A stretch of DNA of 64,000 bases from a virus. The number at the start of each line of letters is the position of its first letter. Within the stretch, counting starts at the first letter, position 1. The DNA is taken from positions 1 through 64,000 of IMG/VR virus record IMGVR_UViG_3300025011_000030; one strand, given 5' to 3'. The position numbers and the translations under genes were made by a program. Of this stretch, positions 3,311 through 32,721 are shown piece by piece. The notes under the pieces were generated by a model. The model had not been told where the DNA came from and did not search any database. It was given only the letters and a program-made list of their open reading frames with translations.

Positions 3311-5602
3311 GTGGCAGAACAAAAAGGTCTTTTTGCGAATTTACCGCAATTCAATAACGACATTCGTGAAAAGAATAAGGTATTAGTCGGAAAAAGTGGT
3401 AAGCCGGCTTCTTCTAAGACTCGTTCAGTGATTGCCGGAGCAGGTAAGAATAAACTTGCCGAGCGCATATCAATTCTACGACAAAATGTGAAGGATATTT
3501 TAGTTGAAGAAGGTAAATACCAATTAATTACTACAGAGGTTGAGTATTGTAACTACATGCAACAGGCTCGGGCTAATGGGTTGCTGGTGATTGATACTGA
3601 AGGAACAAGCTTAGAACCTTTGGACGATGTTTTTGTCGGACTTTGTATCGTCACTCCCGGTTTAAAACCTGCTTACGTGCCGGTACGTCATACAGATCTT
3701 AGAGGAGTTAGGTTACCTAATCAGCTCAGTGAAGAAATAGTTGGCCGGGAATTAACTTTATGTGCTGAGGCTGATACAAAGTTAGTTTTCCATTATGCTA
3801 AGTATGATATTAGAGTGATACGAAAGAGCTTGGGCGTTTACCTAGAACCGTATTGGGATACACAGATCGCTGCTTGTTTACTCAACGAAAATGAGCCTCA
3901 CGAATTAAAAAAACTGTGGTCAAAATACATAGCTAAGAATACCGATAAAAAGGATGTTCCTTTAACATTTGAAAAGCTGTTTTCCGGTATTCCGTTTAAC
4001 TATGTACCTGTTGACATTGGTTATCTGTACGCAGCCAAAGATCCGGAAATGACTTATGACTTATATGAGTATCAACGTGAATTTTTGATTGGTAGTAAGG
4101 CCGAAGCTAAAGGGTTAACTGAAGTCGGTAAAGTTATGATGAATATTGAAATGCCTCTTGTTACTGTATTGTGCGATATGGAAGATACTGGAGTTTGTAT
4201 TGATAACGACTTTGCTTCTAAATTGTCTAAAGAGTATACTGAAAAGTTACAAGTTGTAGAGAAAAAGATACTGGTAGCCTTGAAAGGATTGAATTATCAG
4301 TCGTTACCTAACGAACTTCGTGCTAAGCTGTCTAACCCAATTAATGTAGGCAGTCCAACACAGTTAGCTATTATTTTCTATGACCTTATGGGCCTTAAAA
4401 GTCCGAACAAAAAGAAGCCTCGTAATACAGATAAAGAGGCTCTTAAACACTTCAAGCAGCAAGACGGTGATTTGTTTGACTTGTTACTTGAGTATAGAAC
4501 CGTTTCTAAGTTACTTAGTACCTATATTGATAAGATGCCGAAGGTAGTTAGGACGGATACAAGTCGGCTACACGGTAACTTTAACCAGTACGGTGCTAAG
4601 ACAGGTAGGTTATCGAGCTCAGCGCCGAACTTGCAAAATATTCCATCAAAAAATAAAGAGATTCGTAAAATGTTTGTTCCCGCACCGGGTAACGTTTATG
4701 TGGGCGGTGACTTTTCGCAGGTAGAGCCTCGGTGCTTAGCAGAAGCTTCAGGCGATAAGGCTATGCAACAGGCGTATCGTGACGGGCTAGACATTTATGC
4801 TTGGATGGCGAGCGAGACTTACGGCGTGCCTTATGATCATTGCAAAGAAAATTGGCCTGACGGTACACCTCATCCCGAAGGTAAGAAGCGCCGCGATAGT
4901 TTAAAGAGTGTGTTATTAGGTATCATGTATGATCGTCAGGTTCCTAGTATTGCAATAGTTTTAGGTATTTCGACAGCCGATGCGCAACGTATTTTTGACA
5001 TGTTTTTTGAACGTTTTCCTGACATTAAACGTTTCGTAGAAGATATGAAGGAAATGGGTCATACCAAAGGATTCGTTCAAACGCTATACGGTAGAAAACG
5101 TCGGTTAACGGATCTTCAGCTACCTAAGTACGAAATCACAATGTTAAACGGTGATCCTGTAGACGACACTTCTTACCAGTATTATTACAGGGCACTAGAT
5201 AACAGTCGTTTCAATGAACGTGCCGGTATCGTGCGCGAGGCTAGAGCTCAGGGAGTTAAAATCCGAGATAACGGAGGATTTATTGCCAAGGCAGAACGTC
5301 AAGTAGTCAACAGTATCATCCAAGGAACAAGTGCCGACATAACTAAGAAGGCTATGGTCGCTATAAACCGGGATAAGAAACTTCGTGAACTTGGTGCTCG
5401 AATGTTATTAACAGTTCACGACGAAATAATTTTAGAATGCCCAATCAGCACGGCCCAACAGTGCGCATCTATTATGGAAAAACACATGTTGGCTGCTGCA
5501 GATAGAATCAACTTACCTATGTCAGTAGACGCCGAAATAAAAGACAAGTGGTATGGAAAAACAGTTGAATTTGAAACCGAGGATGAAGACGACGTTGCAT
5601 AA
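3311..5602 (+). CDS. polA: Family A DNA polymerase with 3'-5' exonuclease, no 5'-3' exonuclease, N-terminal QKGLF motif
   Basis: Exo motifs IDTE, HYAKYD, YAAKD; TGRLSSSAPNLQNIP; motif A DFSQVEPR; motif C TVHDE. Confidence 0.97.
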   Translation: MAEQKGLFANLPQFNNDIREKNKVLVGKSGKPASSKTRSVIAGAGKNKLAERISILRQNVKDILVEEGKYQLITTEVEYCNYMQQARANGLLVIDTEGTSLEPLDDVFVGLCIVTPGLKPAYVPVRHTDLRGVRLPNQLSEEIVGRELTLCAEADTKLVFHYAKYDIRVIRKSLGVYLEPYWDTQIAACLLNENEPHELKKLWSKYIAKNTDKKDVPLTFEKLFSGIPFNYVPVDIGYLYAAKDPEMTYDLYEYQREFLIGSKAEAKGLTEVGKVMMNIEMPLVTVLCDMEDTGVCIDNDFASKLSKEYTEKLQVVEKKILVALKGLNYQSLPNELRAKLSNPINVGSPTQLAIIFYDLMGLKSPNKKKPRNTDKEALKHFKQQDGDLFDLLLEYRTVSKLLSTYIDKMPKVVRTDTSRLHGNFNQYGAKTGRLSSSAPNLQNIPSKNKEIRKMFVPAPGNVYVGGDFSQVEPRCLAEASGDKAMQQAYRDGLDIYAWMASETYGVPYDHCKENWPDGTPHPEGKKRRDSLKSVLLGIMYDRQVPSIAIVLGISTADAQRIFDMFFERFPDIKRFVEDMKEMGHTKGFVQTLYGRKRRLTDLQLPKYEITMLNGDPVDDTSYQYYYRALDNSRFNERAGIVREARAQGVKIRDNGGFIAKAERQVVNSIIQGTSADITKKAMVAINRDKKLRELGARMLLTVHDEIILECPISTAQQCASIMEKHMLAAADRINLPMSVDAEIKDKWYGKTVEFETEDEDDVA

Positions 5603-5673: not shown

Positions 5674-6132
5674 TTGATGTATTTAATGACTGAAATTAAA
5701 CAAACTGGGCTCTTTACAGTTGAAGCTGGATTTGAATTTGATTCTGCTCACTTTTTACTCGACCATGCCGGAAAATGCCGGAACATTCACGGTCACAGGT
5801 GGAAAATCATTGTGGCTATTACATCAAACAAAGTTCAAACATCTGGTCCCGAGAATGGAATGGTGATCGACTTTAAACGGTTAAAGGGAGTTTTCAACGT
5901 ACTGATAGAAGAGCTCGATCATGTACTGATTATTCGAAAAGGTTCCATTTCTAACGAGTTATACAGAATGCTAGTCAGTCACGGGTTTATAATTCGTAAG
6001 TTTGATTTTAGCCCTACAGCTGAAAACATGGCTCAGTACATATTTACTTATATGCAGGCTGCAGGTTATGCGATTGCTCGAGTAGATGTTTACGAAACTC
6101 CTAATAATAAAGCTAGTTATAGTGAAAGGTAG
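5674..6132 (+). CDS. queD: 6-carboxy-5,6,7,8-tetrahydropterin synthase
   Basis: FDSAH, CRNIHGHRW, GMVIDF, LDH, PTAENMA, ETP. Confidence 0.96.
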   Translation: MMYLMTEIKQTGLFTVEAGFEFDSAHFLLDHAGKCRNIHGHRWKIIVAITSNKVQTSGPENGMVIDFKRLKGVFNVLIEELDHVLIIRKGSISNELYRMLVSHGFIIRKFDFSPTAENMAQYIFTYMQAAGYAIARVDVYETPNNKASYSER

Positions 6133-6143
6133 GTTGAGCCGAA

Positions 6144-6809
6144 ATGTATGTGAGCGAGAAATTTGTAAGTATTGAAGGTGAAGGTATTAACCAGGGATAT
6201 CCGAGTTTATTCGTTCGTTTCGCTGGGTGCAACTTAAACTGTAGTTTCTGCGATACCTCGTATGCACAAAGTAAGAACGGTGCAGAAGAACTTTCGCCTG
6301 AAAATGTCTTAGAGTGGGCGCTAGAGGCGAGGCTTAAAACAGGTATAAGTCGTATTACACTGACCGGCGGCGAGCCGTTACATCAGAGCTATATTGATAA
6401 ACTTATGTCGTCGTTACTGTTTTACGGGTTTGACATAAATTTAGAAACAAACGGAAGTTACAAATTAACTGAATACCGTACTATCATCCAAAACCCAATG
6501 GTTACGGTAGTGATGGATTATAAACTACCTTCCAGTGGTGAGGAAAACCGTATGGTCAAAACAAACTTGCGAATGCTTGCAGAAAAGGATGTTCTTAAAT
6601 TCGTTTGTCAAACTGAATGCGACTTGTTGGTAGCTAAGAGGATACTGAATATGTATCAGCCGGAAAGTCACGTATATTTCAGTCCTGTGTACGGTAAATT
6701 AGACCCTAAACTGATAGTCGAGTTTCTTTTGGAAAATAAGTTGCATTATTGCCGAGTACAGCTTCAGCTCCATAAACAGATTTGGGGTGCAGATAAGAGG
6801 TGTGTTTAA
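6144..6809 (+). CDS. queE: 7-carboxy-7-deazaguanine synthase (radical SAM)
   Basis: SIEGEG, RFAGCNLNCSFCDT, TGGEP, ETNGS, QLQLHK. Confidence 0.96.
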   Translation: MYVSEKFVSIEGEGINQGYPSLFVRFAGCNLNCSFCDTSYAQSKNGAEELSPENVLEWALEARLKTGISRITLTGGEPLHQSYIDKLMSSLLFYGFDINLETNGSYKLTEYRTIIQNPMVTVVMDYKLPSSGEENRMVKTNLRMLAEKDVLKFVCQTECDLLVAKRILNMYQPESHVYFSPVYGKLDPKLIVEFLLENKLHYCRVQLQLHKQIWGADKRCV

Positions 6810-7409
6810 ATGGCTACAGTGCATGAACTGAAGCAAGCTGAAATAGCTGCGCACATACGAAAGATCTTAGTACTTTTAGGAGAAGATCCCGAACGCGAAG
6901 GTTTAAAGGAAACTCCGGTCAGGGTGGCTAAAATGTTTGACGAAGTTTTTGTAGGGATTCGGTACGATAACGAACAAATTGCTTGCATGTTTAATAAAAC
7001 TTTTGACGATAACTTGGATGTTGCAGGTAACTACAACGACATGGTATTGGTAAAGGACATTTCGTTCTTCAGCTTCTGCGAGCATCATATGGCCCTTATG
7101 TATAACATGAAAGCTCATGTGGCTTATATACCTAACGGCAAAGTCATTGGGCTGAGTAAAATAGCTCGTATCGTAGATATGGTGGGCCGTCGGTTACAGA
7201 TCCAAGAACGTATTGGTACTGACATAGTCGTCATAATGGCCGCTATAACGGATTCACCTGATGTAGCTGTCATTATTGAGGGTGAGCATTCTTGCATGAC
7301 TACTCGCGGTATTAAAAAGCCGGGTACAGTCACTAGAACCAGTACCCTGCGAGGCCGGTTTATGGAGAACTCCGACCTGCGTAACGAACTTTTGTTACTA
7401 TTAAAATAA
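6810..7409 (+). CDS. folE: GTP cyclohydrolase I
   Basis: [36 protein letters not shown]. Confidence 0.97.
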
Positions 7410-7423
7410 GGAGGTAACTGATC

Positions 7424-8077
7424 TTGAATCGTAAAGGTGCGGTATGTGTTTTGTCTGGAGGTCAAGATAGTTCTACTTGTTTGTTTTGGGCTATGAAACA
7501 ATTTAAAGAAGTTCATGCAATAACTTTTGACTATGGCCAACGACATTCTTCCGAAATTGATGCAGCCATTAAGCTTGCTAAGTTAGCGAATGTGGCTAGT
7601 CACGAGGTTATTGAAATTCCTGTACTTAATAACTTAACTGTTAATGCACTAACTCGGGATATTCCAATTGATCCCGGGAAAGACGGCGAGTTACCTAATA
7701 CGTTCGTAGACGGGAGAAACCTCTTGTTTCTAACGTTTGCAGCGATACATGCTAAACAGTTAAACTGTCCTAATGTTGTAATTGGTGTATGCATGACTGA
7801 TTTCAGCGGTTATTCGGATTGTAGAAATGTATTTGTTCAAAGTGCAAACGTCACATTAAACCTTGCTATGGGTTATGATTTCGTTATTCATACTCCATTG
7901 ATGTGGTTAAATAAGGAAGAAACTTGGGAGTTAGCCGATCAGTTAGATGTTTTAGATACAATCCTTAATAATACAGTCACGTGCTATAACGGTATACCGG
8001 GTAAAGGCTGCGGCGAATGCCCTGCTTGCTTGTTAAGATCTAGAGGGTTAGTTTCGTATTTACAAAATAAAAAATAA
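7424..8077 (+). CDS. queC: 7-cyano-7-deazaguanine (preQ0) synthase
   Basis: SGGQDS, DYGQRH, TFVDGRN, YSDCR, TCY...CGECPAC. Confidence 0.97.
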   Translation: MNRKGAVCVLSGGQDSSTCLFWAMKQFKEVHAITFDYGQRHSSEIDAAIKLAKLANVASHEVIEIPVLNNLTVNALTRDIPIDPGKDGELPNTFVDGRNLLFLTFAAIHAKQLNCPNVVIGVCMTDFSGYSDCRNVFVQSANVTLNLAMGYDFVIHTPLMWLNKEETWELADQLDVLDTILNNTVTCYNGIPGKGCGECPACLLRSRGLVSYLQNKK

Positions 8078-8100
8078 CTACGTATCCAGTTAATTCCGTA

Positions 8101-8129
8101 TTGACATAGTATCCTGTTATTAGTATACT
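8101..8129 (+). promoter_or_regulatory. SigA-type promoter of the endonuclease gene
   Basis: TTGACA-17-TATACT. Confidence 0.75.
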
Positions 8130-8149
8130 TGTACTAAAGGAGGGATACT

Positions 8150-8905
8150 ATGCCCGCAGTTGTTTATAAAATTAAAAACATTGTTAACGGAAGGTGCTAT
8201 GTAGGTAGTAGTGAGCATATAGCTAAACGGATATCAACCCATAAGTATTATTTAAGACACGGTATTCACGATAATGTAATTCTTCAGTGTGATTGGGATA
8301 AGTATGGCGAAGATAATTTTAAATTTTCACATGTTAAACAAGTTTTTGACATGACGCTATTGTTAACTCGCGAACAGTATTGGATGAACGAGCTTAAAGC
8401 TGTTGAGTTGGGTTATAACTTATCGCCTACTGCCGGTAACCAGTTGGGTTTTCGACATAGCGAAGAAACTAAACAAGTTATTTCTCAAAAATCTAAAGAA
8501 CGTGCACTAACTTTATTCACTGCAGAGGTTAGGGATAAAATACGTCAGTCTAAATTAGGTCACGAAGTTTCATTGGAAACCAGGCAGAAAATACGTGAAA
8601 AGTTACTCGGTAAAAGTTACATTACAGAGGAAGGTCGTCAACGTATATCAGAGAGTCACCGAGGTAAACAACGTGCGCTAGGGTATAAACATACTACTGA
8701 GGCGAAGCAGCGAATTGGTAGTCATTTTCAAGGTTCTAAGAATAGCCGTGCAAAGCTTACTGAAGCTGACGTTATAGAAATTAAAAAATGTTTGAAAAAT
8801 TATCGTCACGGTATGCTGAGTGAACTTGCTCGAAAATACGGAACAAGTACGCACAACATAGCACACATTCGCGACGGGAAGTCTTGGAAACAAATACAAG
8901 TATAG
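8150..8905 (+). CDS. GIY-YIG homing endonuclease with NUMOD3-like repeats and C-terminal HTH
   Basis: VYKIKN...CYVGSS...R; GYN; four H(S/T)EE(T/A)K..IS-type repeats. Confidence 0.88.
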   Translation: MPAVVYKIKNIVNGRCYVGSSEHIAKRISTHKYYLRHGIHDNVILQCDWDKYGEDNFKFSHVKQVFDMTLLLTREQYWMNELKAVELGYNLSPTAGNQLGFRHSEETKQVISQKSKERALTLFTAEVRDKIRQSKLGHEVSLETRQKIREKLLGKSYITEEGRQRISESHRGKQRALGYKHTTEAKQRIGSHFQGSKNSRAKLTEADVIEIKKCLKNYRHGMLSELARKYGTSTHNIAHIRDGKSWKQIQV

Positions 8906-11060: not shown

Positions 11061-11954
11061 TTGATGTTTAAATTGTATTACGCCGGTACTCAGGAAGCTT
11101 GTGAATATAAGCTGGTTGAAAACGGTAACTTGCGGCTCGTTAGTTATGCAGATTCTAAGAAAACAATTAACCAATGGATTGAAAGGGAAACTCCTGTTTT
11201 TATGGATTCAGGTGCATATTCGGCATTCACTCGTAACGCCTATATTGACATTGATTTTTACATAGACTATGTTAATTTCCTTGACGAATATTTGATTTGT
11301 TTTGCCCAACTTGACGTTATACCAGGCGAACCGGGGAAACCTAAAACTCAGGCTCAACTGCTAAAATCGGCCGAAGATACTTGGCAGAATTATTTGTATA
11401 TGCGAGAAAGAGTTAAAAACGTAGATAAGTGCTTACCTGTATTTCATCGAGGTTCGGACTTTATGTTTTTAAACAGGTTACTAGCTTTCGAGCCTAAAAT
11501 TGATTATATGGCCCTTGGAGCTTTAGTGGGTGCTTCGTCTGTTGAGCGAGATATTTGGCTAACTAAGGTGTTTAAAGTTATTGCAGCGAGCCCTAACCCG
11601 AATGTTAAAGTTCATGCCTTCGGTATGACGAGTTTAAAGCTGTTAGAGCGCTTTCCGTTTTACAGTGCAGACTCGACGTCATGGATAATGACTGGAAGTA
11701 ACGGGTTGATAATGACTCAGTTCGGTAATCTGTTAGTTTCAGGCAAGGCTACAAAAGATTCGCGCCATATCAACAATTTATCAAAGGAGCATTTTCAGGC
11801 AGTTAAAACATATGTTGAGGAAAAGGGTTTTACTTTGGAAGGACTAGCTGAAAAATACATTGACCGCATTCTACTGAATGTCGCTTACCTGACAGACTGG
11901 TCTAGAAGTTATCAGTATAAACCGAAACAGGTAGCTCAAAATCGTTTATTTTAA
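11061..11954 (+). CDS. dpdA: TGT/DpdA-like transglycosylase, paralogue 1 (ends QNRLF)
   Basis: FMDSGAYS, AQLDVI, LPVFH, ALGAL, VHAFG, SADSTSW; next to preQ0 synthesis genes. Confidence 0.8.
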   Translation: MMFKLYYAGTQEACEYKLVENGNLRLVSYADSKKTINQWIERETPVFMDSGAYSAFTRNAYIDIDFYIDYVNFLDEYLICFAQLDVIPGEPGKPKTQAQLLKSAEDTWQNYLYMRERVKNVDKCLPVFHRGSDFMFLNRLLAFEPKIDYMALGALVGASSVERDIWLTKVFKVIAASPNPNVKVHAFGMTSLKLLERFPFYSADSTSWIMTGSNGLIMTQFGNLLVSGKATKDSRHINNLSKEHFQAVKTYVEEKGFTLEGLAEKYIDRILLNVAYLTDWSRSYQYKPKQVAQNRLF

Positions 11955-11970
11955 AAGGAATGATTTACTA

Positions 11971-12828
11971 ATGTTTAACTTTTACTTTACCGGAGGTGTA
12001 CCGGCCGAGGCCGACGACCTTGTAGGCGATAACGTTCTTTTAAGTTATGCTACAGACAGGAGAGGAATCATAAAGCGATACGACCGAGGCCGGTCAACTT
12101 TTGTTGACTCAGGAGCTTTTACTGCCTACACGAAAGGTATAAATGTTGATATTGACGAATACGTCAATTTCGTTAATGCATATGACGAATATATTTCGTA
12201 TTTTGCTCAACTTGATGTGATACCCGGCAGTTACGGGCTATCTGCCGAACAAACGACTGATATCACTTTGAAGAATTATTTGTATATGTTAAGTCGTACT
12301 AAAAGCCCTTGTAAGTTAATCCCAGTATTTCATCGTGGTTCTAATTTAAACTATTTAAAGCAGTTGATTCATACAGGTACAGAGTATATAGGTCTTGGGG
12401 CAATGGCTAAAGTTCCTGAAAAAGAACGTGCGATTTGGCTGACAGAAGTTTTTAAACTAATACCGTCACAAGTTAAAGTTCATGCATTTGGTCTTACTAG
12501 CTTTGACCTACTGGAGCGGTTTCCGTTTTACAGCGCAGACTCGACGTCGTGGTTGATTTATGCGGTGAATGGTCGTTTAATAACTGATTTTGGAAATTAT
12601 ATTGTTATTTCACAAGGTAGAAAAAAGCTTCGGTGCCATGTTGAGCACAAAGGTGAGCTCATAAAAGATACTTTGTATGATTTTATACGAGAGCGCGGCT
12701 TTGAACCTGAACAGCTAATAAACGACCCAAAATCTCGGTTGTTATGGAATATAAAATACATGCTTGAGTGGGTCAACAAATATCAGTATAAACCTGCTAA
12801 ACAAGTCAGTCAAACTAAGTTGTTTTGA
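11971..12828 (+). CDS. dpdA: TGT/DpdA-like transglycosylase, paralogue 2 (ends QTKLF)
   Basis: FVDSGAFT, AQLDVI, IPVFH, GLGAM, VHAFG, SADSTSW. Confidence 0.8.
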   Translation: MFNFYFTGGVPAEADDLVGDNVLLSYATDRRGIIKRYDRGRSTFVDSGAFTAYTKGINVDIDEYVNFVNAYDEYISYFAQLDVIPGSYGLSAEQTTDITLKNYLYMLSRTKSPCKLIPVFHRGSNLNYLKQLIHTGTEYIGLGAMAKVPEKERAIWLTEVFKLIPSQVKVHAFGLTSFDLLERFPFYSADSTSWLIYAVNGRLITDFGNYIVISQGRKKLRCHVEHKGELIKDTLYDFIRERGFEPEQLINDPKSRLLWNIKYMLEWVNKYQYKPAKQVSQTKLF

Positions 12829-12840
12829 GGAGGTGCTCTT

Positions 12841-13722
12841 ATAGGTTTCAACTTATATTTAGCTTCAAGTATGCCAAAATATATAGACGAGTATATTCAA
12901 CAGCACGGAGATAACGTGTTGTTAAGTTATGCAATAAATAAAGCCGACATACGAAAAAGGTTCAATCAAGGTCGGCCTACATTTGTTGACTGTGGTGCTT
13001 ACTTCGCCTATACAAAAGGTATTTACCTTGACATTGACGAGTACATAGATTTCGTTAATGCTTACAATGAATATGTAAGTATGTTCGCTCAACTTGACGT
13101 AATACCCGAAAAAACGGGTCAAGACGTTACTGCAGCAGAAACCACATGGTTAAATTTCCTGTATATGTATTCGCGGGTTAAAAGTCCACACAAATTATTA
13201 CCCGTATTTCATGCCGGTTCTTCTTTAACAGTTTTAGTTAAAATTCTTAAGTTTAAGCCTAAAATTGATTACATGGCCCTTGGAGCTTTAGTGGGTATGG
13301 GAACTAACGACCGTAAAAACTATATTGAAAAGGTGTTTAAGATAATTCAAAATAGCTCTAATCCTACTATCAAAGTACATGCATTTGGAATGACTGATCT
13401 TAGGATTTTAGAAATGTTTCCATTTGAAAGTGCAGATTCGGCTTCTTGGAAAATTAACGCGGGTAACGGTGAAATGTTGACTGACTTTGGCTATACAGCA
13501 GTTAGTTCCGGTAAAATAGGTCAACCTAATCACATTTTTAAACGGTCTAAGGTTGACCAAGAAAAGTTTATACGTTACGTCGAAGCACAGAGTGATGAAC
13601 CGTTTGACATACTACGTGAAAGCTATAAACTTCGACTTCTGTAGAATGTTAAATATTTCATAAATTGGGCTAAAAACTACAAACGAGTCAGTAAAAACGT
13701 GACGCAGACCGAGCTGTTTTGA
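12841..13722 (+). pseudogene. dpdA: TGT/DpdA-like paralogue 3 with ATA start and in-frame TAG at 13642; frame continues to QTELF-stop
   Basis: FVDCGAYF, AQLDVI, VHAFG, SADSASW; LRLL*NVKYF aligns with SRLLWNIKYM of paralogue 2. Confidence 0.78.
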
Positions 13723-24435: not shown

Positions 24436-25330
24436 GCAGCTGAAAAAAGAACTTGATTCTGGTAAGGTTCGACCTTTTTACATTTTCACAGGTGAAGAAA
24501 AGGAAGTACTTAGGAAGTACATTAAGCGCATAAGTCCCGATGTACAGACAGCTCAGTCCTTAGCCAGTATTGCCGGTAAGTTAAGCAGTCGCGGCCTGTT
24601 TGCCCGTAAACAGACTTTCGTTATACATAACGATAAAGAGGCCGTCAAGGTTGAGTTGAGCACGTTATTGAAGCTCATAGGTAACAATACGGTAATACTT
24701 GTGTACGACAGTATTGACGGACGAATTAAGTTTTTCAAAGAAGCTAAGGACTATATCACCGAGTTTAAAAAGTTCACCGAAGCTCAATTAGCTGCAACGG
24801 TTAAACGTCTTTTAGGAACAGATGTAGAACCTAAAATATCTTTGATGTTGAGTTTGTACTGTGGTAACGATGTCGCCCGGTTAGAACTTGAATGTCATAA
24901 ATTAAGAAGCTTAGGGTTACCTATAACCGAACAGTTAGTTGACGAGTTAGTGATACCGCCGGTCGAAGACGAGATTTTTAAAATGACCGAAAGTATTGCT
25001 AAAAAGGACGCCGTTATGGCTTGGTGCTTATACGATAACCTTCGGCAGTTGAAGGAAAGTCCTATTAAAATGATTAGTATACTCTATACCAAGTTTCGCG
25101 AAATATTTTTGGTACAGAGTATGCTTGACAGGGAAAATACAGAGGTATGCTCTAAGACAGGGTTGGTTTTTTGGCAGGTTAATAAAGCCCGTGAGTTAGC
25201 TAACAGGTTCAGCCTGACTGAGCTACTAAGGCACTTAAAATCCATTCAAAAAGCCGAGGTAGATATAAAGACAGGTCGTATTGAGGATATAGTTGCTTGG
25301 GAAAGCTTGTTGCTTAGCATTCTAAAATAA
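24425..25330 (+). CDS. holA: Clamp loader delta subunit
   Basis: YIFTGEE, SRGLF (LF clamp contact), DGR..F, LELECHKL, IFKM, DIKTG. Confidence 0.82.
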   Translation: MEFKQLKKELDSGKVRPFYIFTGEEKEVLRKYIKRISPDVQTAQSLASIAGKLSSRGLFARKQTFVIHNDKEAVKVELSTLLKLIGNNTVILVYDSIDGRIKFFKEAKDYITEFKKFTEAQLAATVKRLLGTDVEPKISLMLSLYCGNDVARLELECHKLRSLGLPITEQLVDELVIPPVEDEIFKMTESIAKKDAVMAWCLYDNLRQLKESPIKMISILYTKFREIFLVQSMLDRENTEVCSKTGLVFWQVNKARELANRFSLTELLRHLKSIQKAEVDIKTGRIEDIVAWESLLLSILK

Positions 25331-25336
25331 AAGGAA

Positions 25337-26035
25337 TTGGTTACCGTGGTAAATACAGCTGAGTGTAAGAACTCTAATATACATCCATCGTTAAATTTTA
25401 GAATAGACGACTATGATTTGCAGTTAGTTATAAGGGCGAAAACTGACGAACGGTCGTTTGATAATTTGTTTAACCGACCCAAGTCGCAGAAGATACGTCA
25501 GGTTATGGCTCGGAGGTATTGGGCTCCCGGAGCAGACTTTGACGATCTGTTGCAAATAGCTAACATAGGGTTCTGGTTTGCCGTTCGTGACTTTAACCCT
25601 GAAAGGGATACTAAGTTTCTAATTTTTATGAAGATTTGCATAAAAAGACTTCTTATAACATTCTTAAAGTTTTCAACCAGGCAAAAACAAATGCCGTTAA
25701 ATTTTTCACGTTCTTACGATGCTTGTATTTACGACGGTTCAACCGAAACATTGTTAAATAAAGTTCCAGATTACGATGCAGACCCTATTGCATGTATATT
25801 GAAGGTAGCCGACTGTAACGACCTCTTGGTCGTTCTTTCGGAATTCCTTAGTACTTTAGAATACGATATCCTGATAATGCGGTATATTGAGGGTTTAGAT
25901 TACGAACAAATTGCACACATTCGGCGGTGCTCGATTAAGCGAGTCAACAATGCCCTTCAACGAGTCAAGAAAAAGGCATTAAAGCACAAAGCCAAGGTAT
26001 TAAATGATTGCTATTTTATACAAAGAGGAAGGTGA
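25337..26035 (+). CDS. Sigma-70-family factor, SigH-like
   Basis: GADFDDLLQIANIG...AVRDF; LSTLE...GLDYEQIA...KRVNNALQRVKKK. Confidence 0.85.
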   Translation: MVTVVNTAECKNSNIHPSLNFRIDDYDLQLVIRAKTDERSFDNLFNRPKSQKIRQVMARRYWAPGADFDDLLQIANIGFWFAVRDFNPERDTKFLIFMKICIKRLLITFLKFSTRQKQMPLNFSRSYDACIYDGSTETLLNKVPDYDADPIACILKVADCNDLLVVLSEFLSTLEYDILIMRYIEGLDYEQIAHIRRCSIKRVNNALQRVKKKALKHKAKVLNDCYFIQRGR

Positions 26036-26465
26036 CTATTACTTGGGTTGGTTAGCTTTTGTCTGTTCCATATTAGGGTATTATTTCCTCATAAAGAAAA
26101 GTCATTGGGTATTCCCTATATGGACAGTATCCAACATTGGATGGGTAGTGCTTGCGGTTTATAATAAGGATTTACCGCAGTTGGCTTTATTTAGTATTTA
26201 TATTGTTATCAACTTTTATGGTTGGTACAAGTGGGCACAGGGTTCTACAATTATTATCGGTGCGGTTTATCAGAATTCTAAAAATGGCGTATTTTATAGA
26301 GTATTGGGAATCGACGGCGAACAAGTTGTTTATATGTGCGAAGATACTCAACTATATTCAAGACCTGTTAAAGAGTGGTTCGGTAAAAACCGCAAAGGGG
26401 AAGTAAGATTCAAACATGCACCTATTCACAACGATAAAGTTCCAAAAGTTTGTTCCTGGAACTAA
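26004..26465 (+). CDS. PnuC-like membrane segment fused to a DUF1653-like domain
   Basis: Three hydrophobic helices ending NFYGWYKW; then YQNSKNG..YRV...VVY...YSRP. Confidence 0.5.
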   Translation: MIAILYKEEGDYYLGWLAFVCSILGYYFLIKKSHWVFPIWTVSNIGWVVLAVYNKDLPQLALFSIYIVINFYGWYKWAQGSTIIIGAVYQNSKNGVFYRVLGIDGEQVVYMCEDTQLYSRPVKEWFGKNRKGEVRFKHAPIHNDKVPKVCSWN

Positions 26466-26493
26466 ATCAGTTCAACAAAGGGAGTGGTAACTC

Positions 26494-27321
26494 ATAAGTA
26501 AGGCAGATACAATTTTTATAAACATGTGTCAGAATATATTAAATAACGGAGTAACTTCAGAAGGACAAAAGGTGAGGCCGAAATGGAATGACGGAACTCC
26601 GGCACATACCGTTAAAATTTTCGGAGTGATAAATCGGTACAACCTTGCAGAGGAATTTCCAATCACTACACTCAGGCCCACTAATTTAAAAGCTGTAATA
26701 GACGAAATACTTTGGATTTGGCAAAAGAAATCGAATAACGTTAATGAACTTAATACTCGAATTTGGGATAGCTGGGCCGACTTTGACGGTTCAGTAGGTA
26801 AGACATACGGTTACCAGCTGGGTATTAAGCATAGATACCTAGAAGGGGTATTTGATCAGGTTGACAGGGTATTATACGATTTAAAGCATAATCCTTATAG
26901 TAGAAGGATAATAACCAACATGTATAATCACCATGACCTACATGAAATGAACTTATATCCATGCTGTTATAGCATGACATTTAATGTTATAGGTGATACA
27001 TTAAGTGCCATTTTAAATCAGCGATCACAAGATGTGCTAGTCGCTAATAATTGGGATGTATGTCACCATGCAATTGTTTTGTTAATGTTTGCACAGGTGA
27101 CCGGCTTTAAAGTGGGTGAGTTAATTCATGTGATTGCTGATACGCACATTTACGACAGGCATGTTGAGGCCGTGAAGGAGCTTATTCAGCGAGAAACATA
27201 TCCTGCACCCAGTTTACTTGTTAACCCTGATGTGAGAAATTTCTACGATTTTTCAGTTGACGATTTTGTACTATTGAATTACAAAAGTGGTCCTCAAATT
27301 AAAATTCCTGTAGCTGTTTAA
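26494..27321 (+). CDS. thyA: Thymidylate synthase homologue with Asp at the substrate-specificity position; probable ATA start
   Basis: IWDSWAD, YGYQ, SRR, catalytic PC, QRSQD, HIYDRH; NNWD where NNWN/PFN is expected. Confidence 0.88.
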   Translation: MSKADTIFINMCQNILNNGVTSEGQKVRPKWNDGTPAHTVKIFGVINRYNLAEEFPITTLRPTNLKAVIDEILWIWQKKSNNVNELNTRIWDSWADFDGSVGKTYGYQLGIKHRYLEGVFDQVDRVLYDLKHNPYSRRIITNMYNHHDLHEMNLYPCCYSMTFNVIGDTLSAILNQRSQDVLVANNWDVCHHAIVLLMFAQVTGFKVGELIHVIADTHIYDRHVEAVKELIQRETYPAPSLLVNPDVRNFYDFSVDDFVLLNYKSGPQIKIPVAV

Positions 27322-27334
27322 AGGAGGGTCTGAA

Positions 27335-27823
27335 TTGATATTATTAAGTGGTATTCAACTAACTCACATGCTGTTGGCTATTGAATCTTCGAAATTAAAT
27401 ACCTTTTGTTATAGAGGTCAGACAGGTGCCGTTATTGTAGCCGAAGATGGTGCAGTCGTTTTCGCTTATAATCGTATGCCGGTTAGTATTGATCACCGAA
27501 TGTGTGTACCTGAAAAATGTCCTAGGGAAGGACAGAAACGGGGTGACTGGTCTAGTCAAAAAGTTTGCCCTGTTATTCACGCTGAAAGAGGTGCTATTTA
27601 CAATGCAGCGAAGACAGGTTTAAAAACTGCAGGTGCCGCGATGTATTGCACATATAAACCGTGTATGGAATGTGCAGTAGCTATCAGTGAGGCTGATATC
27701 GAGACTGTATATTTCCTCAAAGATTATAAGCCTGAGGAAGAAAAGGATACCTACGATGAAGTAGAAGTGTTCTGCTCGCGAGCCTTAATACGTTTGTATC
27801 ATGCACAACTACCGAGGTATTAA
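27335..27823 (+). CDS. dCMP deaminase-like protein
   Basis: GAVIV, HAE, PCMEC. Confidence 0.88.
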   Translation: MILLSGIQLTHMLLAIESSKLNTFCYRGQTGAVIVAEDGAVVFAYNRMPVSIDHRMCVPEKCPREGQKRGDWSSQKVCPVIHAERGAIYNAAKTGLKTAGAAMYCTYKPCMECAVAISEADIETVYFLKDYKPEEEKDTYDEVEVFCSRALIRLYHAQLPRY

Positions 27824-27830
27824 GTTTCAC

Positions 27831-27859
27831 TTGTATATTATATCATAATATGTTACACT
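27831..27859 (+). promoter_or_regulatory. SigA-type promoter with operator
   Basis: TTGTAT-17-TACACT; TATATTA-N5-TAATATG. Confidence 0.7.
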
Positions 27860-27915
27860 ATCAGGTAACAGGTTGTAAAACTTGTTACCTGATATTAGTT
27901 AGAGGAGGTCAACCA

Positions 27916-28251
27916 ATGACTCAAACAATTAAAATTAACACTAGCTTTTTAAGTCAGTTAGCACAGGTTAAGTCCGTTGAAACTCCGTCCAGAAGAGCTA
28001 AAACAGAACGCACTGTTACGTCGAACAACGCGAGAAAATCTACAGTTATAACTGAAAATGATTTCTTGTCTACTCTTACGTTCAACCCTAACTGGCGGGA
28101 TAAGCCTGAATTATTAGTACCAACTGCCGGGGTATGTATGCGCCCTCCTCGAAAACGTAACCTTTACTGTGCCGACTGCAAGTATCACGAAGGTTGCACC
28201 AACGACGGTAAATGTGAACCGGCAGGTGCACCACCCAAGAAGAGAAAATAG
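27916..28251 (+). CDS. Hypothetical protein with Cys-rich C-terminus
   Basis: AGGAGG RBS before ATG 27916; CADC...C...C. Confidence 0.65.
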   Translation: MTQTIKINTSFLSQLAQVKSVETPSRRAKTERTVTSNNARKSTVITENDFLSTLTFNPNWRDKPELLVPTAGVCMRPPRKRNLYCADCKYHEGCTNDGKCEPAGAPPKKRK

Positions 28252-28260
28252 TATAGAGGT

Positions 28261-28307
28261 AAAATAAGGTCGCCTACTTAAAAATAGGTGACCTTATTTT
28301 ATATATT
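28261..28307 (+). terminator. Terminator hairpin fused with a putative phage-sigma promoter
   Basis: AAAATAAGGTCGCCTA-CTTAAAAA-TAGGTGACCTTATTTT-ATATAT. Confidence 0.7.
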
Positions 28308-28350
28308 GAGTGTCGCGAGAAAATTAAAATTTGAAGGGAGTCGTAACTAT

Positions 28351-28926
28351 GTGAGGAAATCTGTATTTCTACTAAGTTTGTTAATTGTTTTAATAGGGTT
28401 TCAAAGTTCTTCAACTCCGGAATTACTATCAACACCTGTAGCTCGTAAAACTGTTTCGGTTAGTCGCGAGCCTACTAACTATCTAAGTATACCGTTAGAA
28501 CCTCGTTATCAAGCACTTGTTAAACAATTAAGCGATACGAATGGGTTAGACTTTTTGTTGGTGGTAGCTATTGCAGGTGCTGAGACAGGTGAAACGTACG
28601 ATGTTAATACGGTGGGCGTCACAGGTGATTTGGGTTTATTTCAGCTGAACCCGAATTATTGTCAATACTTCGCAGAACAAGCTGAAGTAGTCAATGAACC
28701 GTTAGAGGCCGTACCTAATATCAAAATGGCTCTTTGTGAACTGACTCGGTTAAGGGACTTCTGGCAAGACAAAGGTAAACAGGGAGTTGACTTAGAGAAC
28801 TGTATTTTGTCTAGCTATAATAAGGGAATTGCTGGGTTTAATCGGTACGGTTATGCAGTACAGTATATATCCAAAGTAAATCGTGTTCGTACAGCATTAG
28901 TAGAGGAGGTTTCAAATGAATCCTAA
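28351..28926 (+). CDS. SLT-family lytic transglycosylase with N-terminal signal/anchor
   Basis: AIAGAET, GLFQLN, SYNKG; hydrophobic N-terminus. Confidence 0.75.
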   Translation: MRKSVFLLSLLIVLIGFQSSSTPELLSTPVARKTVSVSREPTNYLSIPLEPRYQALVKQLSDTNGLDFLLVVAIAGAETGETYDVNTVGVTGDLGLFQLNPNYCQYFAEQAEVVNEPLEAVPNIKMALCELTRLRDFWQDKGKQGVDLENCILSSYNKGIAGFNRYGYAVQYISKVNRVRTALVEEVSNES

Positions 28927-29564
28927 TTGGTTAAATCTTTGCCCGTCTTGTAAAAACGCTTGCAATGAGGTTCCTGTTCAAGAATACACTCAGTACGAGT
29001 TAGACCAGCCTAAAGCTGTACAGTATCATTTCGGTCGTATGTTAGATAATATAAAGACTCCATTAATTCGCCGAGTTACTGCAGGTACTAGAAACATGTC
29101 CGGCATACATATTTAAGGTTCCGGCATCCTCTAGCGGCAAGTATCATCCTCCATTTAGTTTGGGCCGAGAAGGTTTGATTCGGCATATCAAGGCGGCGGT
29201 TAAAATTGCAATAGCTCTTTTGGAGCACCCTTACTATGGGTTCACTCAGTACGAAAAAGACTTAATCGTTGGAGGATTGTTAATTCATGACTGCGTCAAA
29301 TCAGGTTTTGATTATGATGAATCAACTGGTAAGGTGCATACTATTGATGAGCATCCTATGTTAGTTGAACAGTTGATTAACGTTGACGGTTTAGTTGATG
29401 TTGATAAGTTAGTAGTGCAAACACTTGTTCAGGCTGTACGTGGGCATATGGGCCCTTGGCATAAAAACAAAATGCCAGAGCCTAAAACCCGGTTGGAAAG
29501 ATTTGTACATCATTGTGATTATATTTGTAGTCGTAAAATCTTTTTGGACTTTGATTTTTCGTAG
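28916..29564 (+). pseudogene. HD-domain phosphohydrolase, frameshifted near 29067-29090
   Basis: Second frame reads VPASSSGKYHP...GLIRH...LIHD...HMG...HHCD and has no start/RBS of its own. Confidence 0.75.
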
Positions 29565-29580
29565 AGAGGTGACCGAATTA

Positions 29581-30129
29581 ATGCACGTATGTATAGCAGG
29601 CCCAATGGGCTCTGGAAAGTCTACCACAGCTAAGATTATACAAGATACTCTACTGTTTGACGACGTGATACTGTTAAACCAAACGACAGGTATTAAAACT
29701 CTTATGGACGAGCTTAACTATCAAAAGTTACCTTCTCGTAAAGTTTATCAGGACGTTATGGAATATTTTCGTGAACTATGTGGGCCGGATTGTCATTGTA
29801 GGAGAACAGTTCAACAAGTAGAGAAGGCTGCCGGTAAGATTTGTGTGGTTGACGATGTTCGCCAACATAACGAAATGGCTGTATTCAAGGAGCACGGTTT
29901 CGTTTCAATTGGTATTACCGCGCCGGATAATTTAAGAGCCAACAGGTTATTTAATCGGGACGGGTACGACCAAACCCAGTTTTTTACTCACCCAAAAGAG
30001 TACGAGGCTATGCAAGTGGTTAAATCTTGTGATTTCGAAGTTACTAATAACGGTTCCATAGCCCAATTAAAAGCACACGTTCGACGTATTTTAAACTTAA
30101 TTCCCAAACGTGACCTCAGTACATCATGA
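29581..30129 (+). CDS. P-loop deoxynucleoside monophosphate kinase-like protein
   Basis: GPMGSGKST, VDDVR..NE, R..RDG, NNGS. Confidence 0.8.
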   Translation: MHVCIAGPMGSGKSTTAKIIQDTLLFDDVILLNQTTGIKTLMDELNYQKLPSRKVYQDVMEYFRELCGPDCHCRRTVQQVEKAAGKICVVDDVRQHNEMAVFKEHGFVSIGITAPDNLRANRLFNRDGYDQTQFFTHPKEYEAMQVVKSCDFEVTNNGSIAQLKAHVRRILNLIPKRDLSTS

Positions 30130-30548
30130 CGGTTTTAGGTTATTTTGACGGCGCTAACAAAGGTCAACCAGGCCCTGCCGGGATAGGTGCTCTTATAATC
30201 AAGGACGGAGTTATGATATGGGAAAAGGCGGAGTATATCGGTCTTAAAACTAATAACGAAGCTGAGTATATGGCTTTGTTAGCTGTACTCAAACAAGCTG
30301 TATATCTTGGTATTAAAGAAATAACTATTCGCGGCGATAGTTTATTAGTAGTTAATCAGGTCAATCGAAAGTGGAAGTGTGAAACGCCACATTTAAAACC
30401 TTTGTTGAAACAAGCTTGGGAATATTTAGCATATATTCCTCGTTATAAGCTAAAATGGATTCCTCGTACCCAAAATACTTATGCCGATGCTCTTAGTAAA
30501 CGAGGCCGCATTGAGTTAGCACCTAAGGAGGTTGGCGAGTTTGCCTGA
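30126..30548 (+). CDS. rnhA: Ribonuclease HI
   Basis: FDGA...PGPAG, TNNEAEY, GDS.LVVNQ, WIPR.QN..AD. Confidence 0.93.
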   Translation: MTVLGYFDGANKGQPGPAGIGALIIKDGVMIWEKAEYIGLKTNNEAEYMALLAVLKQAVYLGIKEITIRGDSLLVVNQVNRKWKCETPHLKPLLKQAWEYLAYIPRYKLKWIPRTQNTYADALSKRGRIELAPKEVGEFA

Positions 30549-32721
30549 AATTAAAGTATTGAAGAGGGATGGAAAAACATTAGCTCCATGGGAACCGGAG
30601 AAAATAACTAGAGCTGTAGAAAAAGCTTTTAAGGCTGTTAAAGTCCCAATCACTAAAGATAAATTAAACGTTATTACTTTTAGGGTGAATAGTACATTAG
30701 CGAGCGTTAATGCAATTAAGCCCAAGACTCGCCCACTTGTTATTGAAATTGAGTCCATTCAAAATACTGTTGAATATACTTTACGTGATATGGGTTACTG
30801 GGAAGTGGCTCGGGCTTATATTGTATACCGAGAACAAAGGGCTGATATTCGCCGAGGTAAGAATTTATTGCTAGACGTCATACAGGAAATTGATATTGAA
30901 GCCACCAAAGATAATGCTAATGTAGGTAACACCATGGCTGGAAAGGTATTACAAATCTCAGAGGCTGCCTCGTCTTATTTTTATAGTAAGCGGGTTATCC
31001 CTGAAGTATTTAGTACAGCTCACGATTCGGGTGATATTCACATACACGATAAAGCCTGGTACGGTAAAGGAATTAATTGTTGTCAAATACCGTATACCAA
31101 ATTAGCTCGTGAGGGATTTAATACGGGTCACGGTTTTATTCGGCCGGCACATAGTTTAAAGACGGCTGCTATGCACGCTAGTATTATTATTCAAGCTAAC
31201 CAGAACGAGATGTACGGAGGTCAGAGCTACCCTGATTTTGATAATCAGTTTGTCGCTACAGGTGTTCTTGACTATCAGCGAGGTAAAATACGTCGTGACT
31301 TACAATACGGTGCCGGCCTGGCAGGTAAGCAACTTGAAGAATTAAATACTACAGATGTTGACGTACAGGTAGAAAAAATACTTGACCACAAAGGTTTTCA
31401 AGCTATGGAAGCTCTAATTTATAACCTCAATACAATGCATAGCCGAGGAGGAGGACAAATTCCGTTTTCCTCGATAAATATTGGTGACGTACAAAGTGAA
31501 GATGCTGCTAAAGTTTGTGAATGGATTTTGAAAGCTTTTGAGGCAGGTTTAGGGAAGGGTGAGCAACCTATATTCCCTAATATTTGTTTCAAAATTAAAG
31601 CTGGAGTTAACATGTATCCAACAGACCCATATTATCTATTGTTTAAGTTAGCTCAACGGGTATGTGCGAAACGACTTAACCCGAGCTGGGTTTTCTGTGA
31701 TAGTAGTTTCAACAAAGGTGGCGACATTTCGTATATGGGTTGCAGAACTCGTGTAGTAGCCGATCGTCACGGAGAGTCTACTACAATAGAGCGAGGTAAC
31801 ATCTCATTTACTACTGAAAATTTACCTCGTTTAGCGCTAAAAGCTCTAAATAAGTTTCCTACTGACCAGCAGGCGAGGATTGAGTACTTCTTTGAACTGC
31901 ATAATAACATGTTGGAGCTCATTGTGCAGCAACTCCTACACAGGTTTCACTATATTTGTAATACGTTGAAAGCCAAAGATTTTCCATTCTTACTGGGTCA
32001 GCATTTATACCGGGATGCTGAGTTGTTGAAACCTGATGACAGTATTTACATGGCAGCTCGGCACGGTACTCTTACGTTAGGCTTTATTGGTCTAGCCGAA
32101 TGTCTGACAGCCCTTGTGGGTAGTCATCACGGTGAGGACGAGAATGCTTTATTTTTAGGACATAAGATTATATCAAGAATTCGGGGAGTAGCTGATGCTG
32201 CTTGTAACCAGTATGACCTTAATTTTTCAGTTATTGCTACGCCGGCCGAAGGGTTATCCGGTCGGTTCACTAAGCTGGATAAGGCCCACTTTGGACATGT
32301 AGTTGGAGTGACAGATAAGGACTATTATACAAATAGTTATCATTTGCCGGTAAGTTACAATACAAGTTTCCAACACAAAATAGCTACAGAAGGGCCGTTT
32401 CATAAGTACTGTAACGGAGGTCATATAAGCTATGTAGAGCTTCAAAGTATGCCTCCTGAATACAATTTGGAAGTTGTAGAACAAATCGTAATGAGTATGG
32501 CTGCCAGTGATATGGGCTATGCTGCAATTAACTATCCAGTTGATTATTGTAACTCTTGTGGTACATCTAATAACGTTATACCTCACAGTCAGCCGTGCCC
32601 TATTTGTGGGGAAATTGAAAACATTGACAGAGTTAGACGAATCACAGGTTACCTTAGTACATTAAACCGTTTTAATGATGCGAAAGTAACTGAGGAAAGC
32701 GACCGTAAAGTTCACGTATAA
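30532..32721 (+). CDS. nrdD: Anaerobic (class III) ribonucleotide reductase with ATP cone
   Basis: VLKRDG ATP cone, NCC, MGCRT, ATPAEG, YTNS, CxxC...CxxC, RRITGYL. Confidence 0.96.
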   Translation: MASLPEIKVLKRDGKTLAPWEPEKITRAVEKAFKAVKVPITKDKLNVITFRVNSTLASVNAIKPKTRPLVIEIESIQNTVEYTLRDMGYWEVARAYIVYREQRADIRRGKNLLLDVIQEIDIEATKDNANVGNTMAGKVLQISEAASSYFYSKRVIPEVFSTAHDSGDIHIHDKAWYGKGINCCQIPYTKLAREGFNTGHGFIRPAHSLKTAAMHASIIIQANQNEMYGGQSYPDFDNQFVATGVLDYQRGKIRRDLQYGAGLAGKQLEELNTTDVDVQVEKILDHKGFQAMEALIYNLNTMHSRGGGQIPFSSINIGDVQSEDAAKVCEWILKAFEAGLGKGEQPIFPNICFKIKAGVNMYPTDPYYLLFKLAQRVCAKRLNPSWVFCDSSFNKGGDISYMGCRTRVVADRHGESTTIERGNISFTTENLPRLALKALNKFPTDQQARIEYFFELHNNMLELIVQQLLHRFHYICNTLKAKDFPFLLGQHLYRDAELLKPDDSIYMAARHGTLTLGFIGLAECLTALVGSHHGEDENALFLGHKIISRIRGVADAACNQYDLNFSVIATPAEGLSGRFTKLDKAHFGHVVGVTDKDYYTNSYHLPVSYNTSFQHKIATEGPFHKYCNGGHISYVELQSMPPEYNLEVVEQIVMSMAASDMGYAAINYPVDYCNSCGTSNNVIPHSQPCPICGEIENIDRVRRITGYLSTLNRFNDAKVTEESDRKVHV

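Follow-up and report, generated by a model that had tools for sequence, protein, structure and literature searches.

Thymidylate synthase homologs with aspartate at the pyrimidine-specificity position form a phage clade of predicted dCMP methylases

The virus record IMGVR_UViG_3300025011_000030 was analyzed in a window of 64,000 nt (the whole stretch, positions 1 to 64,000 of the record); coordinates are positions in this window unless another locus is named. A gene of the thymidylate synthase (ThyA) family was found at 26494-27321. Its product, hereafter ThyA(Asp), has aspartate where E. coli ThyA has Asn177, the residue that sets specificity for deoxyuridine monophosphate (dUMP) or deoxycytidine monophosphate (dCMP). 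Residue numbers follow E. coli ThyA (L015, from NC_000913) where indicated. The gene and its diagnostic features are listed below.

26494..27321, + strand: thyA-family gene, predicted deoxycytidylate C5-methyltransferase (5-methyl-dCMP synthase), 275 codons plus stop codon, assigned by PF00303, fold and residues
26480..26487, + strand: Shine-Dalgarno sequence GGGAGTGG, 6 nt before the ATA start
26494..26496, + strand: non-AUG start codon ATA, with a stop codon two codons upstream (26488-90)
26803..26805, + strand: Thr104 (E. coli V93 position, beside Tyr94), a clade-specific change from Ala to Thr; Thr in 5/5 Asp-type and Ala in 173/173 Asn-type proteins
26962..26967, + strand: catalytic Cys157 (E. 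coli C146), then Cys158 (E. coli H147 position), a clade-specific change from Ala to Cys
27055..27057, + strand: Asp188 at the E. coli Asn177 pyrimidine-specificity position; GAT here, GAT or GAC across the clade
27064..27078, + strand: His191, His192 and Val195 (E. coli S180, Y181 and L184 positions), clade-specific, found in 0-1 of 173 Asn-type proteins

The codons at 27019-27069, from CAG to CAT, encode QRSQD-VLVANNW-D-VCHH. In the alignment to E. coli ThyA, QRSQD corresponds to Q165-D169, the GAT codon falls on the N177 position, and the catalytic Pro-Cys is intact at 26959-26964. The initial annotation had pointed to both the Asp and the preserved Pro-Cys, and the alignment bears it out. 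Residues C146, R166, S167, D169, W80, W83, Y94 and L143 (E. coli numbering) are kept, as is the C-terminus of ThyA, PVA(V/I), here PVAV. The protein matches PF00303 over its full length (E 1e-83; score 280.8 bits, cut-off 24.3; positions 2-266 of the 266 in the profile). An AlphaFold model built from a 50-sequence alignment (predicted local distance difference test, pLDDT, 82) resembles B. subtilis ThyA (1B02) with a template modeling score (TM) of 0.89. Among NCBIfam models, TIGR03284 scored above its cut-off (176.6 against 108.35 bits) and NF002495 below (263 against 327 bits). The asparagine at 177 that marks canonical ThyA is replaced by Asp188.

The start of the gene had initially been placed at ATG 26524. 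The codons ahead of this ATG encode (I)SKADTIFIN, matching the MSKADxIFI N-terminus of relatives, and the start is instead assigned to ATA 26494, behind its Shine-Dalgarno sequence and just past the upstream stop codon. In three related loci with the same Asp (L005, 4744-4746, minus strand; L006, 474-476; L008, 239-241) the start codon is ATT, which follows strong, purine-rich Shine-Dalgarno sites; starts farther upstream are ruled out by stop codons in both the ThyA(Asp) gene and L005. Over the first ten codons of the four loci the protein is conserved, and differences at conserved residues are almost all synonymous. Asn-type relatives start with ATG. Three N-termini have been called for ThyA(Asp) (249, 265 and 291 aa), all of them wrong because of the AUU/AUA start. 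The conservation of this weak start codon, which is described here for the first time, may reflect a deliberate restriction or regulation of methylase expression.

The 120 best homologs were retrieved from a collection of 5.8 billion proteins, and a second search brought the number of Asn-type relatives to 173. Asn was present at position 177 in 118 of the 120, the other two being ThyA(Asp) itself and a protein 77% identical to it (P0002), and in all 173 Asn-type relatives. In the 118 Asn-type proteins the catalytic Cys is followed by Ala, GKAY comes ahead of the Tyr94 equivalent (checked across all Asn-type relatives), and Q-Y stands at +3/+4 from the Asn; ThyA(Asp) and P0002 both have PCC, GKTY and H-H alongside the Asp. 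Degenerate DNA scans for QDxLxANNWD in viral, metagenome and species-genome collections added three loci with the full signature: L005, a complete 70-kb phage, L006 and L008. Three other matches (L009, L010 and L013) were rejected as unrelated proteins with a chance ANNWD. When a profile of the five Asp-type proteins was used as query, the only Asp-type clusters retrieved were that of P0002 and that of ThyA(Asp) itself. The clade is small: besides ThyA(Asp), whose sequence occurs in three cluster members and about 10 contigs from several sources, identical except for the called starts, it comprises these phage and metagenome copies at 77-80% identity.

In a maximum-likelihood tree the five Asp-type proteins formed one clade (Shimodaira-Hasegawa-like approximate likelihood ratio test, SH-aLRT, 99; stem 0.22 changes/site) nested within Clostridia-type ThyA. 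At seven alignment columns the clade is invariant for a residue that is essentially missing from the 173 Asn-type relatives (E. coli numbering): Met1 to Ile, Ala to Thr at 93, Ala to Cys at 147, Asn177 to Asp, Gln to His at 180, Tyr to His at 181, and Leu to Val at 184. The ratio of nonsynonymous to synonymous substitutions (dN/dS) between members was 0.04-0.06 where measurable, with synonymous sites saturated (proportion of differing synonymous sites, pS, 0.73-0.94); two members encode the Asp by GAT and two by GAC. The clade is a selected, re-specialized subfamily and not a dying gene. It has an independent and recent origin from Clostridia-type ThyA, not described before. Alignment with the closest relatives, the check proposed in the initial annotation, thus found Asp kept at 77-80% identity throughout, and the refuting condition named there, Asn in every close relative, does not hold.

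A lone Asp at the N177 position was also seen in a chromosomal thyA-folA operon of a Faecousia metagenome-assembled genome (L012; JAZNPV010000094.1, 4771-5598, minus strand), flanked by DprA and a DEAD-box helicase. This gene starts with ATG, has none of the co-varying changes, and lies elsewhere on the tree; its Asp may reflect a sequencing error or a polymorphism, or it may be a variant that the enzyme tolerates.

Of the seven changed positions, exactly two, 147 and 177, belong to a published set of twelve residues of the E. coli enzyme that come within 6 Å of dUMP C5 (PMC13326640). The same two were the top discriminators of cytosine-modified metavirome contigs in an independent genotype-phenotype screen (PMC8670742), and both are changed in ThyA(Asp) relative to its nearest Asn-type relatives. 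The model shows residues 185-203 as one helix, where pLDDT averaged over blocks of 10 residues is 82 to 96. From their spacing (i, i+3, i+4, i+7), residues 188, 191, 192 and 195 would lie along one face of this helix, beneath the specificity residue. The enzyme of phage PaMx74, a homolog from a different ThyA branch, likewise has His at the Tyr181 position, and the comparison suggests convergence at this site.

Rules relating residues to activity have been drawn from experimentally typed phage enzymes (PMC13326640): Asp177 goes with dCMP as substrate, an acidic residue (D/E) at 143 correlates with hydroxymethyl products and Leu with methyl products, and 5-hydroxy-dCMP synthases are recognized by Asn at 169. 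With the change N177D (E. coli) or N229D (L. casei), according to PMC8670742 and PMC13326640, thymidylate synthase becomes a dCMP methylase (1992 papers by Hardy and Nalivaika and by Liu and Santi). ThyA(Asp) combines Asp177, Leu143 and Asp169, the residue set of the phage deoxycytidylate C5-methyltransferases of the Xp12/PaMx74/MetaGPA type; therefore 5-methyl-dCMP is the predicted product. Judged from its residues, the enzyme has probably switched from dUMP to dCMP, which it would most likely convert to 5-methyl-dCMP with methylene-tetrahydrofolate. The initial annotation had allowed for either 5-methyl- or 5-hydroxymethyl-dCMP; under the published rules, with Leu143 and Asp169 kept, the prediction narrows to the methyl product, in preference to hydroxymethyl or hydroxy.

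The genes that follow thyA bear on this prediction, and the following features were recognized.

27335..27823, + strand: dCMP/cytidine-deaminase-family gene (PF00383, E 1e-17), candidate deaminase for 5-methyldeoxycytidine (5mdC) nucleotides
29160..29564, + strand: small viral HD-domain protein (phrog_5889), no more than a candidate for hydrolysis of dCTP or deoxynucleoside triphosphates
29581..30129, + strand: P-loop deoxynucleoside monophosphate (dNMP) kinase (phrog_139, E 7e-20; AAA_18 above cut-off, DNMK and dNK below)

The deaminase gene starts with TTG after AAGGAGGG, 14 nt past the thyA stop codon, and its HAE and PCxxC zinc motifs are intact. Among dCMP-deaminase genes from metaviromes put under selection for modified cytosine, 70% have a ThyA homolog no more than 3 kb away, against 6% on unmodified contigs, and most of the deaminase-linked ThyA homologs have Asp177; five of seven tested Asp177 homologs, and the Xp12 enzyme, produced 5mdC in vivo (bioRxiv 10.1101/2024.12.05.627091). 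The spacing observed here is well inside this 3-kb limit. Homologous deaminases (35-38% identical) lie directly 3' of the Asp-type thyA in L005, L006 and L008, giving 4/4 loci, and no homolog of this deaminase was found within 6 kb of thyA in four Asn-type phage relatives or in the 8-kb L012 locus. The link to the adjacent deaminase suggested in the initial annotation is therefore conserved, and it matches the published Xp12-type pathway, in which the linked deaminase mSCD-B5 converts 5mdCTP to dTTP, does not act on dCMP or 5mdCMP, and supplies thymidine where cytosine is fully replaced by 5-methylcytosine (5mC) (bioRxiv 10.1101/2024.12.05.627091).

The four linked deaminases have in common a Cys-containing insert before the catalytic HAE, C..(K/N)C(P/L)RE..PG.W...CPVIHAE, which may be a second metal site (27500-27580 in the window; deaminases at 3433-3900, minus strand, in L005, 1318-1788 in L006 and 1083-1553 in L008). 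The insert is absent from the PaMx74 deaminase.

A nucleotide kinase is present in each Asp-type module, although of two unrelated types. In place of a P-loop kinase, the slot after the deaminase is occupied in L005 (3038-3433, minus strand), L006 (1788-2168) and L008 (1553-1963) by DUF3310 proteins matching PHROG nucleotide/dNMP kinase families, which looks like a non-homologous replacement. The anti-phage dCTP deaminase model NF041025 matches the deaminase at 27335-27823 with its C-terminal part (337-399) and the kinase at 29581-30129 with its N-terminal part (92-214); therefore the two halves of a defense protein are present as separate phage genes.

The Atlas clusters of the HD-domain protein are named HD domain proteins, and no match to it was found in PDB or NCBIfam. 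No family was found for the open reading frame (ORF) at 27850-28251, which is not truly similar to the L005 DUF3310 protein at the corresponding place. In the ORF at 26004-26465, just upstream of thyA, the N-terminal half matches PF04973, the family of PnuC nicotinamide-mononucleotide transporters (E 6.5e-8, positions 2-71 of the 175 in the profile), and the C-terminal half is unrelated and soluble-looking. A promoter and terminator scan of 25300-30700 gave nothing above shuffled expectation and is uninformative on the limits of the operon.

The phage genome is 85,650 bp and the virus record is rated complete (CheckV 100%). Neither a second ThyA nor ThyX was found in it, nor a dihydrofolate reductase (DHFR) gene, nor a DNA C5-methyltransferase, nor any MazG (PF03819), PRA-PH (PF01503) or dUTPase-type pyrophosphatase. 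The L005 phage encodes a 475-aa Dcm-type DNA C5-cytosine methyltransferase (PF00145, E 6e-44) at 7050-8477, minus strand, and neither QueC nor a homolog of the P-loop kinase at 29581-30129 was found there. L005 gave a sub-threshold match to MazG only, and the ORF in question was rejected as a relative of the PaMx74 pyrophosphohydrolase, to which it has no similarity.

These genes can be arranged into a putative pathway. The catalytic Cys would attack C6, as in ThyA, and Asp188, in place of Asn, would pair with N3 and the 4-amino group of cytosine. Since the enzyme keeps Leu143, the tryptophans, Tyr94 and the PVAV at its C-terminus, hydride transfer would then reduce the exocyclic methylene intermediate, in place of its hydration. 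The P-loop dNMP kinase, four genes downstream, and host kinases could raise 5-methyl-dCMP to the triphosphate. The adjacent deaminase, at whichever level of phosphorylation it acts, would convert part of the 5mdC nucleotide pool to thymidine nucleotides, which would explain how the phage manages without a dUMP-type ThyA or ThyX. The leftover 5-methyl-dCTP would be incorporated into phage DNA. For a dCMP methylase we consider such incorporation more likely than a role in thymidine supply only, because of the published enrichment of the gene pair on modified contigs and the precedent of Xp12 and PaMx74.

Several points weigh against this reading. The rule for position 143 is a correlation and not a proven determinant. 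Two of the seven tested Asp177 homologs gave no detectable 5mdC (bioRxiv 10.1101/2024.12.05.627091). Identity to the PaMx74 enzyme is only about 25%, so that the predicted function draws on features shared by convergence and not on orthology. With the pyrophosphatase of Xp12-type modules missing from the whole genome, the exclusion of dCTP has no explanation, unless the small HD protein acts on it; DHFR is missing as well. The Dcm-type methyltransferase of the L005 phage would be redundant if all its cytosine were already 5mC.

Some of the same observations would fit a phage that makes thymidylate by a cytosine-first route only, with the deaminase turning essentially all 5mdC nucleotide into thymidine nucleotide, the DNA keeping ordinary cytosine, and the gene pair serving as a two-step substitute for ThyA. 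The pair is the sole visible route to thymidine nucleotides in this phage, no dCTP-removing pyrophosphatase was detected in the genome, and a DNA C5-methyltransferase stands beside the pair in the L005 phage. The dNMP kinases do not discriminate, since dTMP needs them too. Against such a route, contigs surviving a selection for modified cytosine are strongly enriched in the pairing, the phages Xp12 and PaMx74, both of which have it, replace cytosine by 5mC entirely (bioRxiv 10.1101/2024.12.05.627091), and the characterized partner deaminase works on the triphosphate, leaving 5mdCTP for the polymerase. We regard thymidine supply without incorporation as unlikely, though it deserves to be taken seriously. 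Improbable by comparison is an ordinary dUMP-methylating thymidylate synthase that tolerates Asp, with the deaminase supplying dUMP from dCMP. A dCMP deaminase feeding thymidylate synthase is a textbook pairing, ThyA(Asp) is 73-75% identical to bona fide Clostridia ThyA and passes TIGR03284, and the L012 operon, apparently a housekeeping one, has a lone Asp. However, Asn is invariant among the 173 relatives while the Asp clade has six co-fixed changes by the catalytic Cys, by Tyr94 and on the helix under 177; laboratory enzymes given the N177D or N229D change become dCMP methylases (quoted from PMC8670742 and PMC13326640); and the score for the NF002495 equivalog falls short of its cut-off.

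A T4 gp42-like dCMP hydroxymethylase, or a 5-hydroxy-dCMP synthase (RB69 gp48/DLP3 gp80 type), feeding a hypermodified cytosine is very improbable. Asp177 is common to both classes (PMC13326640), but position 143 is Leu and not Asp/Glu (Asp in gp42), position 169 is Asp (in QRSQD) and not Asn, the ThyA C-terminus absent from gp42 is kept, and no glycosyl-, carbamoyl- or other transferase gene was seen in the module. The initial annotation had also raised a single AAT-to-GAT decay mutation. Although Asn and Asp codons are one nucleotide apart, decay of a dying gene or a sequencing error is refuted: the reading frame is intact and full length, the protein is the same (starts aside) in about 10 contigs from several sources, and four diverged lineages keep the Asp and its six co-varying changes under strong purifying selection while their synonymous sites are saturated.

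The phage also has a predicted 7-deazaguanine DNA-modification locus of the preQ0/DpdA-like type. QueD, QueE, FolE and QueC genes were recognized by Pfam, and three tandem TGT/DpdA-like paralogs by phrog_887 (5674-8077, 11061-13644). The co-occurrence of an Asp-type ThyA with such a locus in one 85.6-kb phage is reported here for the first time; it is not general for the clade, because L005 has no QueC. A literature search gave no obvious description of a phage combining nucleotide-level cytosine modification with a DpdA system, which is a weak negative. We suggest, tentatively and as a possibility that may well fail, that both partners of the G:C pair are modified, cytosine to 5mC by ThyA(Asp) and guanine to a 7-deazaguanine derivative by the three DpdA-like transglycosylases fed by FolE-QueD-QueE-QueC, and that the seven-residue signature with its non-AUG start is a minimal natural recipe for turning ThyA into a dCMP methylase. 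If so, the phage DNA would carry two independent base substitutions.

The proposed dCMP methylase would add an independently evolved lineage to the known phage enzymes. With about 75% identity between this lineage and bacterial ThyA, the fixed differences are a short, testable list of additions to the Asn-to-Asp switch. The prediction is that an uncultured 85.6-kb phage, represented by some 10 contigs, makes 5mdC nucleotides and encodes a deazaguanine pathway; should both modifications reach the DNA, the phage would be shielded from restriction twice over, which is unusual. There is a practical side to the partner deaminases as well, related ones being under development for methylation sequencing.

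Earlier publications have described an Asp177 ThyA paired with a deaminase, in Xp12, in PaMx74 and on metavirome contigs. The module described here is like those of Xp12 (a Xanthomonas phage), PaMx74 (a Pseudomonas phage, Pamexvirus) and the metavirome set with its mSCD deaminases (bioRxiv 10.1101/2024.12.05.627091; PMC8670742) in having Asp177 with Leu143, a PF00383 deaminase directly after thyA, and no separate dUMP-type synthase. In PaMx74 the pyrophosphohydrolase, thyA and cd genes are adjacent in that order (thyA and cd being PaMx74_52 and _51), and DHFR (frd) lies about 400 nt beyond cd. In contrast, the present module and genome are without a MazG-type pyrophosphatase or DHFR, the kinase is of another type, and the start codon is non-AUG. 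ThyA(Asp) also belongs to a different ThyA branch from the PaMx74 enzyme and keeps the ThyA C-terminus, which the latter lacks. T4 gp42 is of the same superfamily, has Asp at the specificity position, and is likewise partnered in the phage with a dNMP kinase and a dCMP deaminase. It differs in having Asp143 and no ThyA C-terminus (22% identity to E. coli ThyA in the alignment), and its hydroxymethyl product is followed by glucosyltransferases.

Clostridia ThyA (e.g., Acetivibrio thermocellus, P0078) and B. subtilis ThyA (1B02; 42% identical) have length, fold and folate-side residues in common with ThyA(Asp). They differ in Asn177, Ala147, Ala93, Gln-Tyr at 180-181, Leu184 and the ATG start, and in L012, the one bacterial locus examined for context, thyA is followed by folA (DHFR) and not by a deaminase. 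There is also a parallel with the laboratory N177D and N229D enzymes, which are likewise otherwise canonical ThyA with Asn changed to Asp; the clade looks like their natural counterpart. The mutants lack, however, the other six substitutions that are fixed in the clade (positions 1, 93, 147, 180, 181 and 184 in E. coli), which presumably are optimizing changes.

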